Shown here in pieces: positions 25,214 through 50,276 of a stretch of 64,000 bases of DNA. Made by a program: the position numbers and the translations under genes. The stretch is taken from positions 26,309 to 90,308 of the forward strand of contig CAVUWV010000030.1 in assembly GCA_963745075.1 (NCBI GenBank), given 5' to 3'. The stretch's first letter is position 1. Each line of letters starts with the position of its first letter. Below the pieces are notes generated by a model. It saw nothing but the letters and a program-made list of their open reading frames with translations, made no database searches and was not told the origin of the DNA. This DNA comes from Candidatus Hydrogenedentota bacterium (GTDB lineage Bacteria; Hydrogenedentota; Hydrogenedentia; Hydrogenedentales; SLHB01).

Positions 25214-26566
25214 CTACTGGGTGACGTTTAGTTCGTCCTTCAATTTGAGCGCTACGGTCGATGAGATTGGGTCGGGCGCGTTCTTGGGAAGTTGGATGAC
25301 GACGCCTTCGGGAGTCGAATCCGTTTCGAGGGCGGTGTCAGGTTCCGCGAGCAGGTACGCGTGGCCGACGGTGGACTTGAGTCCGGGGGCGAGCAGAACG
25401 TCCGTCGGAGGGCCAATCGAAGACGTGCAGGTACAGGGTGGCCCCGTCGTCGTCAATCTTCTTCGTGCAGCGGCCCCACGGGAGGTTGCTGAAGGGGCTG
25501 GCGGTGGTGCCGTAGATCGCCTCGCCGTTGACGTCCATCCAGTCGCCGATCGCCTTGAGCCGGTCGATGGAGGGCTGGGGGATGAGGCCTTCCGAAGTCG
25601 GGCCGACGTTGAGCAGGTAGTTGCCGCCTTTCGAAGTGATGTCGACCAGATTTCGGATGAGCGTCTCCGTGCTTTTCCAGTTGTCGTCGTAGCTCTTGTA
25701 TCCCCAGGTATCGTTCATGGTCATGCAGACTTCCCAGTCACGACCTTCGATACCCGTATCGGGGATGTGCTGCTCGGGGGTATCCGTGTCGCCGTCGAAA
25801 CCGCCGCCGAGACGGTTGTTGGTGATGATGCCGGGCTGGAGTTCGGTCAGCGGGAACAGTTTGGCCGCGCGCTCCGGGGTCATGTCGTAGGGCGTGTCCC
25901 ACCAGAGAATGGCGAGAGGAGCCGTAGTTCGTCAGAATCTCTTTCACCTGGGGCACGGCAACGTTCGTCGATGTAAGCGTCCATGTCGCCATCCTGTGCG
26001 GGGTCCCAGTGGCCGCCCTTGGCCGCGCCGCCGGGATTGTTCCAGTCCTGAGCCTGGGAATAGTAGAACCCGAGTTTCATGCCGTGTTTGTGGCAGGCGT
26101 CGGCGAGGGGTCTTAGTAGGTCCTTACCATAGGGAGTGGCGTCGACGACGTTCCAGTCGGAGGCCTTGGAATCGAAGAGCGCGAAGCCGTCGTGGTGTTT
26201 GGACGTGATGACGATGTACTTCATGCCGGCGTCCTGTGCCATCTGCACCCAGGCATCCGGGTCGTACTTCACGGGATTGAACTGCTTGGCGTATTCGCGG
26301 TATTCGCTCACGGGGATCTGGGCGTGATGCATGATCCATTCGCCGATGCCGTCAATCCGTTCGCCCTTGTAGGTCCCCGCAGGCACGCTGTAGACGCCCC
26401 AGTGAATGAACATGCCGAATCGGGCTTCGCGCCACCATTCCATGCGCGCGTCGCGCTGCGCCGGCGTCTCCTTGAGACCGAGTTCCTGGGCGCCGGCAAA
26501 TTGGGCGAGTAACCCGAGGGTCAGGATGGTGGTTAATGCTAAGGCGACAGTTCGTTTGGTTTGCAT
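25214..26566 (-). CDS. Alpha-L-fucosidase (GH29), split by three apparent +1 frameshifts
   Basis: WWREARFGMFIHWG, AGMKYIVITSKHHDGFALF, ILWWDTP (nucleophile region, recovered across a shift), WEVCMTMNDTWGY, GGNYLLNVGP. Confidence 0.92.
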
Positions 26567-26805
26567 GACTTCCCCTACTTCTCCCGCCCAGCGTGCGGGT
26601 CGTACTTGCGGACGTTAATGTACCATTCTGCCACTTGGGGCACGCCTGAGTCACGCGGATGACCAGGGCAACCGCAGCAAGATTGTTGGATCACGGAAGC
26701 GTGGCCGTCCGGGCTGCCGAAGACACAATGCGAAAACGACGAAATGGGTCCCCACTGGGAGCGCCAGGCTCTGCTTGCCCCCACGTCTCCGTGGAGAAAG
26801 GTACG

Positions 26806-30760: not shown

Positions 30761-33700
30761 TCACGCCTTTTTTTCGATCTGGGTGAAGTCTGCGGTCAGG
30801 GTAATGGCGTCGCGCACGTCGCGAACGAGGGCGTGGCGATTCTGACGGACGCGGTCGTTTTGGTCGTTCACGAGGACGGCTTCGAAGTACGCGGCGATGA
30901 TGGGTACCCACGTCAGGATCTCTTCGCAAGCCTTGTCAAACTCCTTCCTCTCGATGAAGGTGCGGACTTTGTCCGCGGAATCGGTGCGAATGAGATTGAG
31001 CGCTTTCTCGTTGTCGTCCAGGAGAGACTCGTCAACGGCGTCAGCGGGATCCTTGACGATGCGCTGCATGCGCTTGGTCTGTTCCGCGAGGTCCTGGAGT
31101 TGATGCTCTTCGAGTTTGCTGATGGCATCGAGGCAGCGGTGCAGTTGCACCGGACGTTTCCCGTGCACGGCGAGTGCGGCCGCGACCTGGTCGTAGACGT
31201 AGCCGTGATCGCGCAGCATGACGGCCATGCGGTCGCTGAAGAAGTCGAGGATGGTTTGCAGCGCCTTGTCCGGTGCGTGAACGATTTCGCCGTAGTTGGC
31301 CAGCGCCGCGCGCACGAACACTTCGAGGTCGATGTCGAGTTGATTCGCGTCGATGATGGAGAGTAAGGCGAGCGCGTTGCGGCGCAGTCCCATGGGATCG
31401 CTGGTGCCTTTGACCCGCTGGCCGATGCCGAAGTAGCCGGCAAGGGTGTCGAAGCGGTCGAGGATGCCGGCCACGGTGCCGAGATTGCATTGCGGCAAGG
31501 CGTCATCTGCGCGGCGGGGCAGACGATGCTCGAAAATGGCTCGGGCGATATCTTCGTCGATGCCCTCTTTGCGGGCGTAGAGCATGCCGACGACGCCCTC
31601 GAGGGAATCAAATTCAAAGACCATCTGCGTGGTGAGGTCGGCCTTCATCAGGGTGAGCACCTCCCCCATCTTCCGGTCGTCGACTTCGGGGAGGAACTGC
31701 TTGAGCGTGAAATAGAGATCGCGCAACCGCGTGACCTTATCCGCTACGGAGCCGAGTTTCTGATGGAACATGACGGTATTCAGCTTCTCGGCGAAGGCCT
31801 TTAATGGGGTCTGGGTGTCCGTATCCCAGAAGTAACGGGCGTCGCGGAGGCGCGCGTTCAACACGCGCTCGTTTCCCGCGCGGATGATGTCGCGGCCCTC
31901 TTTGCTGAACTGGCCGTTTGCGACGCAGATGAACTTGTGGCTGAGCGAACCGTCGGCGGCGCGCAGCGGGATGTAGCGTTGATGGACTTTCATGGGCGTG
32001 ATGATGATGTCCTCGGGAAGGACGAGGGCGTCTTCCGGGATCGCGCCGACGATGGGGTCCGGGTATTCGACGAGATCGGCAATTTCCTCGTAGAGGTCGT
32101 CGTCATCTTCGGCGACGAGTTTTTCCGATTTGGCTAATTCGTGGACGCGATTGACGAGCATCTTCTTGCGATCCGAGTGGTCGGCGAGGACGTAGTGTTT
32201 CTCGAGCGTGTCGAGATAGTCACCGGTGGAATCGATGGTGATGGGTCCGGCGGCCAGACGACGATGACCGTAGGTGACGCGGCCGGAGTTGATGACGCGT
32301 TCGGCGCCGGTGTCGCCTTCGTCGCGAAGCTTGACGGACGCGGGGACGACGGTCGATCCGTGCAAGGCGAGAAGCCAGCGGATGGGCCGGGAGAAGACGG
32401 TAGTCGTATTTTCCCAGCCCATGGTTTTTCCGAAATGAATGCCGGCCAAGACGTCCTCGACCACTTCGCCCAAGAGCTTTGCGAGGTGCTTACCTTTCTG
32501 GTGTACTTTGACGAAGCAATACTCCGATTTGCCGTCGCTGCGGAATTCGATGTCGTCGACGGTGGCCCCTTGTCCTTCCGCGAAGCGTTGTGCAGCCATG
32601 GACCAATCGCCCTTGTCGTTCTGGGCGGCTTGGCGTTTGGGACCGCGGACTTCCTTGGTTGCGTCTTGTTGACGCGCAGGGACGTCGTCAATCAGGAAGG
32701 CGATGCGGCGGGGCGCGACGTAGGTTCGGATTTCGCCGTGCGTGAGACCGCGGGCCTCAAGGGCTTTGGCGACGAGCGCCGGCGTTTGGGATTGGACGGT
32801 CTGCACGTCGCGGTGTGGCAGTTCTTCCACGCCGATCTCGACGAGCAGCGTATCTTTGTCTTTGTAAGTCGGACGGGTCGGGGCGTTCCTGTTCGATGGC
32901 TTCGTACGTGACCGGGCTCGGATGGCGCAACATCGGGAAAGCCCATCTCCTCGCGTTGGGCGAGGAACCCTTTCGCGCACTGTTCGGCGAGGGCCCGGCA
33001 TCGAAGCAGGAAGCGTCCGCGTTCGGACACCGAAAACGCGCCGCGCGCGTCGAGCAGGTTAAACAAGTGCGACAGCCGCAGGCAGTGGTCGTAAGCCGGG
33101 AGGATGAGGCCAAGTTCGAGAAGGCGCTGCCCCTCCCCTTCCCAGATGTCGAAGACCTGGAGCAGTTTCGACGTGTCCGCGACGTCAAAGTTGTACTTGC
33201 AGTACTCGACTTCCTGAGCGTGAAAGATGTCCCGGTAGGTGACACCGCCGGGTGACCATTGCAGATCGAAGATGTTCTCGACGCCTTGCAGGTACATGGC
33301 GATGCGTTCGATGCCGTAGGTGAGTTCGCAGGCGCGCACGTCGAGCTTGAGCCCGCCGCATTCCTGGAAGTAGGTGAATTGGAGCACTTCCATACCGTCG
33401 AGCCACGCTTCCCAACCGAGACCCCAGGCACCGAGGGACGGGCTTTGCCAGTTGTCCTCGACGAAACGGAAGTCGTGAAGTTTTAGATCGAGGCCAAGGG
33501 CTTCGAGGGATTCGAGGAACAGTTCCTGCACGTTTGGCGGCGATGGTTTCAGGATGACCTGGTACTGGTAGTAGTGCTGGAGGCGGTTCGGGTTTTCGCC
33601 GTACCGGCCGTCGGTCGGGCGTGTGCTCGGCTCCGTGTACGCGACCCACCAGGGTTCCGGCCCCAACACGCGCAGGAACGTGGCCGGGTTGGACGTGCCC

Positions 33701-33792
33701 GCGCCCACTTCCGTGTGATACGGCGTCCACAAGAGACAGCCGCGGCTGCTCCAGAAGTTGTTGAGGGTCTGCAACACATCCTGCACGTACAT
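30761..33792 (-). CDS. glyS: Glycine--tRNA ligase, probably a single alpha-beta fusion (GlyQS) interrupted by two apparent +1 indels near 32870-32940
   Basis: Alpha part: [40 protein letters not shown]. Beta part: [40 protein letters not shown]. No separate start or RBS for beta. Confidence 0.95.
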
Positions 33793-33960
33793 GATCGATT
33801 CGGTCCTTCTAACGTGGTCGTATCCCGGGAAAGTCCGCCGTGCCACCCGGCCCCGGCGCCGGCGAAGAAAGGGTTAATGCAAAGCGAGAATTGTACTTGC
33901 GAACGGGTGCGGGAGTCAAAGAATGGGCGGATGAATGGGTGGACGGAAAAGTGGGAAAGA

Positions 33961-33987
33961 CCACAGCCGGGGGCGGCTGTGCCACAC
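33961..33987 (-). repeat. REP copy 1
   Basis: CCACAGCCGGGGGCGGCTGTGCCACAC, the reverse complement of GTGTGG-CACAGCCG-CCCC-CGGCTGTG-G. Confidence 0.92.
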
Positions 33988-34088
33988 GTCTACCTCGTAA
34001 GACCATGTTCTTGTCCACCCGTTGCACGCTCAGTCTATATTCAGAGACTTCGACGGTTAGTTGTGAAAACCGAGTGTTCACCAAGCGA

Positions 34089-34114
34089 GTGTGGCACAGC
34101 CGCCCCCGGCTGTG
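34089..34114 (+). repeat. REP copy 2
   Basis: GTGTGGCACAGCCGCCCCCGGCTGTG. Confidence 0.92.
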
Positions 34115-34203
34115 ATTTTTCCGCACTTCGTGAACATGCAGTCCCGGAGTAGCTCGCAGAACCCTCCTTAATCCCATGTGAGAAGTCACGTCAGAATCCC
34201 GAC

Positions 34204-34770
34204 ATGGAACATGAGAAGCCCGACAAACCGGACGTCCATGGCAAACGCCGAAAGGCGAAGCCGAGCAAAGAGTTCTACCACCGAAACCTGCCACATATTC
34301 AGAAGTCAGGCCGTCCAATCTTTGTCACTTTCCGTACCTACCGGCGCATCATCTTGCCAGAGACTGTACGTACGCAAGTTCTACAGCATTGTTTGTACGA
34401 CAACGGACGCCGAATCCACGTCTATTGTGCGGTCGTCATGCCAGATCACGTCCATATGCTCTTCACCCTGCTCGAAGATGATGACGGAACGGCGTTCAGC
34501 TTGGAGGAGATTACAAACGGGATTAAGGGCGCTTCCGCTCACACGGTCAACCGTCAATTGAGGCGAAAAGGATGCCTATGGCAGGACGAATCCTTTGACC
34601 ATGTTCTTCGATCCGACCAGAGCGTCGAGGCGAAATCACAGTATATTTGCGATAACCCGATTCGAAAGGGTCTGGTTTCCGAGCAGGACGACTATCCCTG
34701 GCTTTGGCGAGAATGGGTTGAAGGCGAAGCGGATACTCAAAACGACTCGGCGCAAGAAGAACGAGACTAA
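34204..34770 (+). CDS. REP-associated tyrosine transposase (RAYT, IS200/IS605 TnpA-like Y1 family)
   Basis: RNLPH, IFVTFRT, HUH motif VMPDHVHML, LWQDESFDHVLR, catalytic Tyr in QYICDNPIRKGLV. Confidence 0.92.
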   Translation: MEHEKPDKPDVHGKRRKAKPSKEFYHRNLPHIQKSGRPIFVTFRTYRRIILPETVRTQVLQHCLYDNGRRIHVYCAVVMPDHVHMLFTLLEDDDGTAFSLEEITNGIKGASAHTVNRQLRRKGCLWQDESFDHVLRSDQSVEAKSQYICDNPIRKGLVSEQDDYPWLWREWVEGEADTQNDSAQEERD

Positions 34771-34773
34771 AGA

Positions 34774-34800
34774 CCACAGCCGGGGGCGGCTGTGCCACAC
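34774..34800 (-). repeat. REP copy 3
   Basis: CCACAGCCGGGGGCGGCTGTGCCACAC, starting 3 nt after the RAYT stop. Confidence 0.92.
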
Positions 34801-34901
34801 TCGCTTGGAAAGTACTTGATTCTTGGGTCCAACCGTCGACATCACTGAGATCGACAGCGGCTTCGCCGGGTTGGGAGGGGAATTTGTCTTGTGCGGTAGA
34901 C

Positions 34902-34928
34902 GTGTGGCACAGCCGGCCCCGGCTGTGG
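34902..34928 (+). repeat. REP copy 4
   Basis: GTGTGGCACAGCCGGCCCCGGCTGTGG (one loop substitution). Confidence 0.92.
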
Positions 34929-35063
34929 TCTTCTTACTTGAGCTAAGTCCTCGCCATATGGCATTCAAGCCCAAAATTCCCCTATAGTGCTTCAGAGCTT
35001 GGAGAATGCGGAATGGAGGCGCACCTTGATGCGTCTCACATAAGCCAACGGGGAGTTTTTGCG

Positions 35064-36284
35064 ATGAAGTTCTATCGTGTACTGACATTGGGCGTGCTGT
35101 GTCTGGCTTTGGCGTTCGTGTGCCTTTCTGCGAAAGCAGAGCCTAAGCACGTTTACCTGACCTATTCGGATGCGCCGGAAACGACGATTGACATCAACGT
35201 GATGCTGGACGAGAAGGAAGGCGATACGGTGGATGTGTATTACGACACGAAGCCGCATGGCGGGGAACTCGATGCGTACGCGCAGCATGTGACCGCCGAG
35301 TACGTTCAGACGGTGATGCAAATCAGCGACGACCGCGTCGTGTATGTGGCGACGCTGACGGGGCTGGAACCGGGAACCGAGTATTACTTCGTTGCGGGCG
35401 AGACGAAAGAATATGGCATGTCGAAGGAGCGCAAGTTCCGGACCTTGCCCGGAGGCGACAAGCCGTTCCGCTTTGTGACCGGCGGCGACATGGGCGTCGA
35501 CGGCTTTGCGATCGCGCTGCTCGAGATCGTGAGCGAGACGGAACCGGACTTTGGCGTCGTTGGTGGCGATATACCGTACGCGAACGGGCGGCTGGCTGAC
35601 CGCTTCTTGTGGGACAAGTGGCTGGACAACTGGGACCGGCTGACGACGACGGAGGACGACCGGATGATTCCGATCGTGGCCGCCATCGGAAACCATGAGA
35701 CGAACGACTATGATTCGCCAAACCAGGACTTGCGGGCGCCGTGGTACATGAGCATTTTCGGTCGTCAGGGCGAGAACGTGTATTACTCGCGGCAGTTCGG
35801 CGATAACATGGTGTTGTTCGCGCTGGATTCGGGTCATCTGGTGAGCCATGAGGCACAAGCGCCCTGGCTCGACAAGGAGATGGCAAAGTACCAGGACGTA
35901 AGGTACAAGTTCGCGGTGTACCACGTGCCGCTGTATCCCGCTCACCGCCCCTATGAGGGCGGCGGTTCGGTTGCCGGTCGCGAGTATTGGCTGCCCATCT
36001 TCGACAAGTACGGGCTGACCGTGGGGATGGAGAATCACGATCACGTGTTCAAACGCACGAAGCCATTGAAGGGAAACAAGGTTGTTGAGCAGGGTACGGT
36101 GTTTATCGGCGACGGCTGTTTCGGCCGCGAGCCGCGCGAGGTGGATGCCGAGTTACGCTGGTACAACGTGAAGCAGTTGTCGAAGGCGCATTTCTGGGTG
36201 GTCGACGTGGCCGATTCGGGGCTGAAGCTGAAGGCAATCGATGCCGAGGGGATTGAGATTGACGCGTTCGAGTTGCCGGGGTAA
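35064..36284 (+). CDS. Secreted purple-acid-phosphatase-like metallophosphoesterase with N-terminal FN3-like domain
   Basis: Signal peptide; LTGLEPGTEYYF; GGDMG, GGDIPYA, GNHE, VYHVPLYP, HDHVFKRT. Confidence 0.9.
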   Translation: MKFYRVLTLGVLCLALAFVCLSAKAEPKHVYLTYSDAPETTIDINVMLDEKEGDTVDVYYDTKPHGGELDAYAQHVTAEYVQTVMQISDDRVVYVATLTGLEPGTEYYFVAGETKEYGMSKERKFRTLPGGDKPFRFVTGGDMGVDGFAIALLEIVSETEPDFGVVGGDIPYANGRLADRFLWDKWLDNWDRLTTTEDDRMIPIVAAIGNHETNDYDSPNQDLRAPWYMSIFGRQGENVYYSRQFGDNMVLFALDSGHLVSHEAQAPWLDKEMAKYQDVRYKFAVYHVPLYPAHRPYEGGGSVAGREYWLPIFDKYGLTVGMENHDHVFKRTKPLKGNKVVEQGTVFIGDGCFGREPREVDAELRWYNVKQLSKAHFWVVDVADSGLKLKAIDAEGIEIDAFELPG

Positions 36285-36309: not shown

Positions 36310-36344
36310 CAAAGTAGACGCGGCTTCCAGCCGCGTCTACTTTG
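36310..36344. terminator. Perfect 16-bp intercistronic hairpin
   Basis: CAAAGTAGACGCGGCT-TCC-AGCCGCGTCTACTTTG, ending just before the AAGGAG RBS of the next gene. Confidence 0.6.
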
Positions 36345-36359
36345 GGAAGGAGTAATCTC

Positions 36360-50052: not shown

Positions 50053-50276
50053 GTGAAGGTTCCAGTTCGTCGTTGATGTGAATCATTCTGCACGTGCGAC
50101 GCGGACGTGTAAAGCGGACAGTCAACTGCTGGAAGGTCTGCCCTCACGCGACGTGGCAGTTGCGGGAATTGTCGATGGGCACGGATGTAGCGCAGGCGTT
50201 TCGTCTGCAACCGTACGGCAAACTTCGACACTAAGGTATACCCCCACGGTTGCAGGCGAGATGCCTGCGCTACGAC

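Follow-up and report, generated by a model that had tools for sequence, protein, structure and literature searches.

Two REP doublets with related spacers of about 100 nucleotides bracket a RAYT gene in an uncultured Hydrogenedentota lineage

Introduction

The closest described counterparts of the locus analysed here are the REPINs and their REP-associated tyrosine transposases, or RAYTs (PMC3116915, PMC3337134; RAREFAN preprint 10.1101/2022.05.22.493013). In these systems the two inverted REP hairpins are separated by less than 130 bp, and it is the doublet that is copied; there are tens to hundreds of extragenic copies, and a single-copy RAYT is flanked by doublets of the same kind. The spacers are less conserved than the REPs, no two of them are identical and they have lengths characteristic of the family (PMC3116915, PMC3337134), and REP dimers with spacers of similar length and variable sequence have been published already (PMC3116915, PMC3733652). 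These traits recur at the locus described below, which lies in a window of 64,000 nt (the whole stretch of DNA that was analysed, positions 26,309 to 90,308 of contig CAVUWV010000030.1) from the genome of a Candidatus Hydrogenedentota bacterium (GCA_963745075.1). However, a REPIN is by definition an imperfect palindrome over its entire length, spacer included, and forms one long hairpin (PMC3116915), whereas the spacer here is about 100 nt long, asymmetric and without the expected hairpin.

A second group of relatives comprises the GTAG-tagged REPs and their TT dimers (Di Nocera et al. 2013, PMC3733652). As in those families, the REPs described here carry a GT[A/G]G head (GTGG in this case) 5' of an 8-bp stem, the heads lie inside the dimer, heterodimers of different stems occur, and some copies are clustered or are tandemly reiterated along with adjoining DNA. 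However, neither the REP sequence nor the host group is found among the listed families, as far as checked, and the TT dimer is here the dominant form, with spacer ends that are conserved but not complementary.

In E. coli, the TnpA-REP protein binds the REP hairpin and its head on single-stranded DNA and cuts beside them, as shown in vitro, and the linker of BIME-1/RIP elements carries an IHF site. There, as here, a REP consists of a head tetranucleotide and a hairpin, and the protein is homologous to the one encoded at our locus. The linkers of E. coli BIMEs are, however, short defined motifs, some of which bind IHF, while the spacer examined here is long and variable.

Results

A RAYT gene between two REP doublets

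The features of the locus are collected in Table 1. Read in the canonical direction, the REP arm is GTGTGG-CACAGCCG-CCCC-CGGCTGTG-GTCTT, in which a GT[A/G]G-type head precedes a hairpin with an 8-bp stem and a 4-nt loop, followed by a tail. The GTGG head of the left outer arm, read on the opposite strand, points toward the spacer, and in each doublet both heads face the spacer, which is the arrangement called a TT dimer. The arms of the upstream doublet form inverted repeat I3 (34 nt, 94% complementary) and those of the downstream doublet inverted repeat I4 (31 nt, 97% complementary), each with 101 nt between its halves, so that the identical spacer length given in the first-pass annotation is exact. 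The REP stem is kept by compensatory change, CCG/CGG predominating here and GCG/CGC being the main form of two congeners, and the minority forms are paired as well. The upstream doublet ends 81 nt before the RAYT start. At its other end, the RAYT stop codon TAA (34768-34770) falls inside the tail (AAAGAC) of the REP arm that follows, and the 3' end of the RAYT of one congener (G001) likewise runs into a REP.

Table 1. Organisation of the RAYT locus (window coordinates)
Feature	Position	Strand	Sequence	Remarks
Left (outer) REP arm, upstream doublet	33954-33987		GGAAAGAC-CACAGCCG-GGGG-CGGCTGTG-CCACAC	8-bp stem, 4-nt loop
Spacer, upstream doublet	33988-34088	+	GTCTACC...CAAGCGA on + strand	101 nt; asymmetric
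Right (inner) REP arm, upstream doublet	34089-34122		GTGTGG-CACAGCCG-CCCC-CGGCTGTG-ATTTTTCC	
RAYT gene	34204-34770	+		188 aa
Left (inner) REP arm, downstream doublet	34769-34800			32 nt identical to 33956-33987 (direct repeat D1, 100%)
Spacer, downstream doublet	34801-34901	-	GTCTACC...CAAGCGA on - strand	101 nt; inverted relative to upstream spacer
Right (outer) REP arm, downstream doublet	34902-34932		GTGTGG-CACAGCCG-GCCC-CGGCTGTG-GTCTT	

The protein encoded between the doublets scores 93.3 bits against the NCBIfam equivalog NF047646 (REP-associated tyrosine transposase; cut-off 80) and 32.5 bits against Pfam PF01797 (Y1_Tnp; cut-off 23). Its sole match among solved structures is E. coli TnpA-REP (PDB 4ER8), with which the HUH motif (HVH, residues 82-84, nt 34447-34455) and the catalytic-type tyrosine (residue 147, in YICDNP, of the form YxxxNP, nt 34642) are aligned; however, the alignment is distant (E = 2.5e-8). 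With IS200/IS605 elements and their non-autonomous derivatives the system shares the Y1 HUH fold, end hairpins recognised on single-stranded DNA and the lack of an evident target duplication. An IS200/IS605 identity was nevertheless rejected, as the match to the IS200 equivalog NF033573 (24.1 bits) lies below the cut-off of 55 and the gene is single copy; moreover, the end hairpins here are one sequence on opposite strands, whereas IS200 has distinct LE and RE on one strand. The next paralogue in this genome is 30% identical to the RAYT and other Y1 genes are at most 33% identical. There are 16 Y1_Tnp matches in the genome, and the window holds a second REP family, a GTAG-headed palindrome at 36310-36345 (CAAAGTAGACGCGGCTTCCAGCCGCGTCTACTTTGG), 16-mers of which have up to 27 genomic copies, so that several REP/RAYT pairs may coexist in this bacterium.

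In each of the three congeners that possess it, namely this genome, G001 and G002, the RAYT has a doublet on either side. The flanking spacers measure 101/101 nt here, where they are inverted and 55-64% identical; those of G002 measure 99/99 and are direct repeats with 82% identity, and those of G001 measure 96/97 and are likewise direct, but each of the two is nearer to other family members than to its partner. RAYT homologues 50-67% identical to ours occur in Acidobacteriota, Deltaproteobacteria, Planctomycetota and others, and these too are often bracketed by doublets, with spacers of 77/78, 80/81, 83/87, 113/106 and 136/134 nt. These lengths are locus-specific but internally matched. Thus, two related doublets around the RAYT are the normal state, and spacer length is a lineage trait rather than a universal distance. 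Many of these loci, among them L075, L081, L090, L130, L136, L143 and L145 in Deltaproteobacteria and Acidobacteriota, have a REP hairpin that hardly differs from the one described here, namely ACAGCCGCCCNCGGCTGT preceded by GTGG or GTAG as the head; this pairing of RAYT and hairpin across phyla could be due to extreme conservation or to horizontal spread.

According to published descriptions, RAYTs occupy a fixed locus and are passed on vertically. Here, none of the genes neighbouring the RAYT matches among the three congeners within about 1.2 kb (the flanks are short and the genomes are MAGs), and its distribution in the genus is patchy, which together with the uncultured host lineage would set this system apart from described REPIN-RAYT pairs. 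The three other congeners that were searched gave no match; the REP/RAYT system was found in three of the six, and in one genome of another family.

The two flanking spacers are inverted homologues whose equal length is coincidental

The first-pass annotation had counted 56 matches in 101 positions between the upstream spacer and the reverse complement of the downstream spacer, and this count is reproduced. In the direct orientation the same spacers share 29 matches, and 19-32 at offsets of -6 to +6. As 20,000 shuffles gave a mean of 25.3 (sd 4.3) and a maximum of 43, the homology in the inverted orientation is real. It is not ungapped, however, as had been claimed. Positions 21-55 or so of the pair fit better at offset +1 (8/15 per window vs 3-7/15), and the best alignment contains two compensating 1-nt indels. 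Allowing one extra base in each spacer yields 64/100, a gain of 8 compared with a maximum gain of 6 in 300 indel-free simulations. The closest third copy, located elsewhere in this genome (C24:463072), is 100 nt long and has neither of the extra bases; it is 73-74% identical to the upstream spacer, or 74/100 once the extra base of that spacer is removed. The equal length of the two spacers thus results from two compensating indels and is a coincidence.

The islands of identity that had been named are all present in both spacers, yet they are of two kinds. The terminal ones, GTCTAcC.. and ..CAAGCGA, are family-wide, while the C24 copy alone has the internal TCAG.GA, TCGACGG and AGT in common with them. 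The two RAYT-flanking spacers and this third copy make up a subfamily.

The doublet is the copy unit of a dispersed, extragenic family

The 26-nt REP core occurs 43-45 times in this genome (6.8 Mb in 36 contigs), in about 18 full doublets and in partial ones; G001 has 71 doublets and G002 118, and a genome of another family of the same order contains the exact 26-nt core with its heads outward. Every spacer of this genome is oriented, beginning with GTCyAnCT...GAC and ending with ...CAAGCGA, and the mean pairwise spacer identity is 54%, compared with 45% for shuffled controls. The elements are extragenic, 17 of 19 having no spanning gene according to a crude gene caller, and the genes beside them stand in all possible arrangements, with the element in either orientation.

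That the REP-spacer-REP structure is one unit rather than two independent REP pairs, as had been proposed, is confirmed by the oriented, homologous spacers in every doublet of the three genomes. Two G002 copies with unrelated flanks (L050 and L055) have spacers that are 90% identical and REP arms that match at 30-32 of 34 positions, and their similarity extends exactly from AAGAC to GTCTT; the same boundaries delimit the similarity between the copy at C24:463065 and the copies in the window. Conservation across 53 elements stops at TCTT on both sides, and neither a target-site duplication nor a motif is conserved beyond it in these elements. A clean empty site was not obtained, the only G002 site without an element being rearranged. 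Since copies at unrelated sites are alike from outer REP end to outer REP end, the mobile unit is the whole doublet of about 165 bp. This is the REPIN or REP-dimer concept as already published.

A REP arm variant with a 12-bp stem (CACAGCCACGCCGCGGCGTGGCTGTG) is present in 28 copies in G002 (for example at L162 and L165), 5 in G001 and 2 in this genome (C1:290977-291002), and forms heterodimers with the standard arm. Tandem arrays occur as well: at C1:317094-317945 in this genome a 229-bp unit is repeated about four times, in which a doublet's right half, with the REP and a portion of the spacer, is joined to about 130 nt of flank, and G002 L161 has a comparable 131-nt duplication of spacer and REP. 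GATC-rich palindromic repeats (GGACGGATCGGACCGATC...GATCCGTCC) are found at least 45 times in this genome (e.g. C8:445004) and often abut REP doublets in the congeners (G002 L159, L161, L163, L165). Other high-copy short repeats lie in the window at 26749-26771 (TCCCCACTGGGAGCGCCAGGCTC, up to 33 copies) and 50182-50199 (CGGATGTAGCGCAGGCGT, up to 18 copies), and an unrelated repeat of about 95 nt at G001 L153:1505-1600 has at least 39 further copies in G002 with 74-96% identity.

Spacer length is narrow but not fixed

The doublet had been taken for an element of fixed length whose strict conservation pointed to a geometric or functional constraint, and a genome-wide survey of doublets had been suggested as a check. 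In this survey the terminal islands proved common to all spacers, but the lengths vary: in this genome, spacer lengths in the 13 clean doublets are 93, 93, 94, 94, 95, 95, 97, 100, 100, 101, 101, 101 and 102 nt, and those of the congeners range from 86 to 100 nt, with a mode of 96-97. A further doublet of this genome (C1:114298-114570) has a spacer of 221 nt owing to an internal tandem repeat, in which a 32-nt unit (GTCCAACTCCACCGACCGTGGCTGTGCCACAC) that spans the junction of REP head and spacer is present five times, each unit ending at the CCACAC head.

It is possible that spacer length is nonetheless under direct functional constraint, because the hairpins would have to be held about 100 nt apart for RAYT synapsis or by the geometry of a single-stranded DNA loop, and indels would be selected against. 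Lengths are indeed narrow despite a pairwise divergence of about 40%, with 35 of 40 sampled G001 and G002 spacers measuring 96-98 nt (a hand tally of G001 gave about 40 of the 49 listed), the two doublets that flank a RAYT have nearly equal spacers at each locus across phyla while differing between lineages, and length has been described as an apparently critical feature of REPINs (PMC3116915). However, indels do accumulate in these spacers, as illustrated by an orthologous pair from G001 and G002 with lengths of 93 and 97 nt (two indels), in which the spacer is 80%, the REP arms 96% and the flanks 82% identical, and the RAYT-flanking pair in the window has itself undergone two indels. The spread within this genome, including the 221-nt copy, also speaks against a strict requirement. 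Moreover, spacers of 50-140 nt occur in lineages with near-identical REP hairpins and RAYTs 50-67% identical to ours, so that no single distance is required, and about half of the G001 copies deviate from the modal 97 nt, roughly as expected from a 97-nt source and a few 1-nt indels. We therefore regard a direct constraint on length as a doubtful, though serious, alternative. The narrow range is as expected if the copies derive from one source and have since acquired a small number of short indels, and a mild selective constraint, of the sort already proposed for REPINs, is conceivable.

No fold, conserved start codon or foreign match is detected in the spacers

Neither spacer in the window has a significant fold (MFE z of +0.95 upstream and -0.96 downstream), and their self-complementarity exceeds that of shuffles only weakly (z of about 1). 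Among 53 spacers, considered on both strands, the mean MFE z was 0 to +0.8, and RNAalifold returned no consensus pairs for any of three sets. The whole elements do fold strongly (z = -8.4 and -8.7), but this is due to pairing of the REP arms only. A structured RNA or an extended hairpin in the spacer was rejected on these grounds, and an Rfam scan of 33500-35300 at E <= 1 returned nothing. A small ORF or start codon was rejected likewise: three does not divide the spacer lengths, and the conserved right end contains an ATG (in GGCATGGCAAGCGC) that is not itself conserved. By eye, the spacer consensus contains neither a promoter-like hexamer pair nor an obvious match to the IHF-type site WATCAANNNNTTR.

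These results bear on the possibility that the spacer has a function of its own, for instance as a small RNA, a terminator, an mRNA stabiliser or a site for a nucleoid protein, and that its ends and length are conserved through this function and not through the RAYT. In favour of this, the spacer is oriented and has islands conserved across three species, and in 7 of 19 cases the element is no more than 25 nt from the 3' end of a gene. However, the spacer is not biased toward either orientation with respect to the adjacent gene (2 same vs 5 opposite), its orientation flips between species, and it yields no RNA family match, no fold or consensus structure on either strand, no conserved start codon and no promoter-like motif. 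A function residing in the spacer itself is thus quite improbable.

The spacers had also been considered as a cargo-like variable region. Variable sequences of regular size between conserved repeats might recall captured foreign DNA, either as cargo or as a CRISPR-like memory, but all spacers are homologous to one another, the repeats are inverted, the elements are dispersed singly, and blastn searches of both doublets against phage and plasmid sequences gave no match. A CRISPR-like array was rejected for these reasons, and foreign capture in any form is barely conceivable.

Spacers differ in orientation and sequence at orthologous sites of two congeners

Ten G001 sites were compared with their G002 orthologues, whose flanks are 67-91% (mostly 73-91%) identical; nine are occupied in both genomes and one is rearranged in G002. 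Three sites have retained both the orientation and the sequence of the spacer (80-88%), and in such conserved pairs the flanks are 75-91% and the REP arms about 96% identical. Two others have kept the orientation, but here spacer identity is down to 56-60%, against 73-83% for the flanks. At one site the same spacer is inverted (73% globally and 85% locally, with flanks of 85-88%), and at three more it is inverted with an identity at the family background of 54-64%, one of these being within a complex cluster. Thus, five of the nine sites have spacer identities of 54-64%, far below those of their flanks, and simple drift does not suffice to explain them. In addition, two sites carry the 12-bp-stem REP variant in G002 and a standard arm in G001, although spacer and flanks are orthologous. 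These comparisons suggest, as a lead, that spacers are inverted or replaced and REP arms converted at fixed sites; the swaps are treated as no firmer than a lead because G001 and G002 are fragmented MAGs.

One way to account for this pattern is that the REP arms serve as recombination sites and that the asymmetric spacer of about 100 nt is a cassette, which the RAYT would probably flip in situ and exchange between fixed sites; in a variant of this scenario, recombination between arms or template switching, rather than the RAYT, would flip and swap the spacers. Opposite spacer orientation at four of the nine orthologous sites, in one case with clearly the same sequence, argues for it, as do the two sites at which the orientation is kept and only the spacer has diverged, the replacement of standard and 12-bp-stem arms, and the finding that no two of the three congeners have their spacers oriented alike with respect to the RAYT. 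However, G001 comprises about 800 and G002 about 340 contigs, and apparent swaps could stem from mis-joins at repeats or from mixed populations. Independent insertion into a preferred target is an alternative, and DNA between short inverted repeats is expected to invert in the course of evolution even if no dedicated enzyme acts on it. We consider such a cassette unlikely, even if it is not far-fetched. Conversion of arms combined with replacement of spacers would also account for uniform arms beside diverging spacers.

Discussion

The two spacers are very probably the interiors of two REPIN-type copies, each a TT dimer of inverted, GTGG-headed REPs, that bracket the single cognate RAYT of this genome, and their resemblance is then due to descent from one REPIN. 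The RAYT-flanking copies of G002 would still be recognisable as such, being 82% identical direct repeats, whereas here one copy would have come to lie in the opposite orientation. By analogy with E. coli TnpA-REP, the RAYT would bind the REP hairpin and its GTGG head on single-stranded DNA and cut beside it, and the whole doublet (AAGAC...GTCTT) would be copied to new extragenic sites. Recognition by the RAYT, together with conversion from copy to copy, may keep the REP arms nearly identical, while the interior of the spacer would drift at about the rate of the neighbouring DNA and only its two ends beside the REP heads would be conserved. A length of about 100 nt would then be a family trait that is derived from the source copy and loosely held. 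The data show the anatomy of the locus, the family to which the doublets belong, the unit that is copied, the identity of the RAYT, the absence of structure in the spacer and the history of its indels, whereas the catalytic steps and the cause of the conservation of the spacer ends are inferred here. Three observations sit less comfortably with this reading: the spacer is not an imperfect palindrome, the RAYT locus is non-syntenic within the short flanks and patchy among congeners, and five of nine orthologous spacers have diverged beyond drift.

The locus adds a REPIN-RAYT system to an uncultured lineage, which is of little consequence by itself. A more appealing prospect is that the long asymmetric spacer allows orientation and identity to be tracked from site to site, which is impossible in the palindromic REPINs of Pseudomonas. 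Near-identical REP hairpins associated with RAYTs that are 50-67% identical to ours, in Acidobacteriota, Deltaproteobacteria, Planctomycetota and the present lineage, add to its usefulness as an object of study. If upheld, the inversions and swaps would bear on what RAYTs do in cells and on why REP arms are uniform while spacers diverge. Should the spacers indeed prove to be cassettes exchanged between REP arms, this would amount to in-vivo evidence of RAYT-type recombination at REPs and to a mode of REPIN evolution other than copy-and-decay, and the inverted spacer beside the RAYT described here would represent one such flip.
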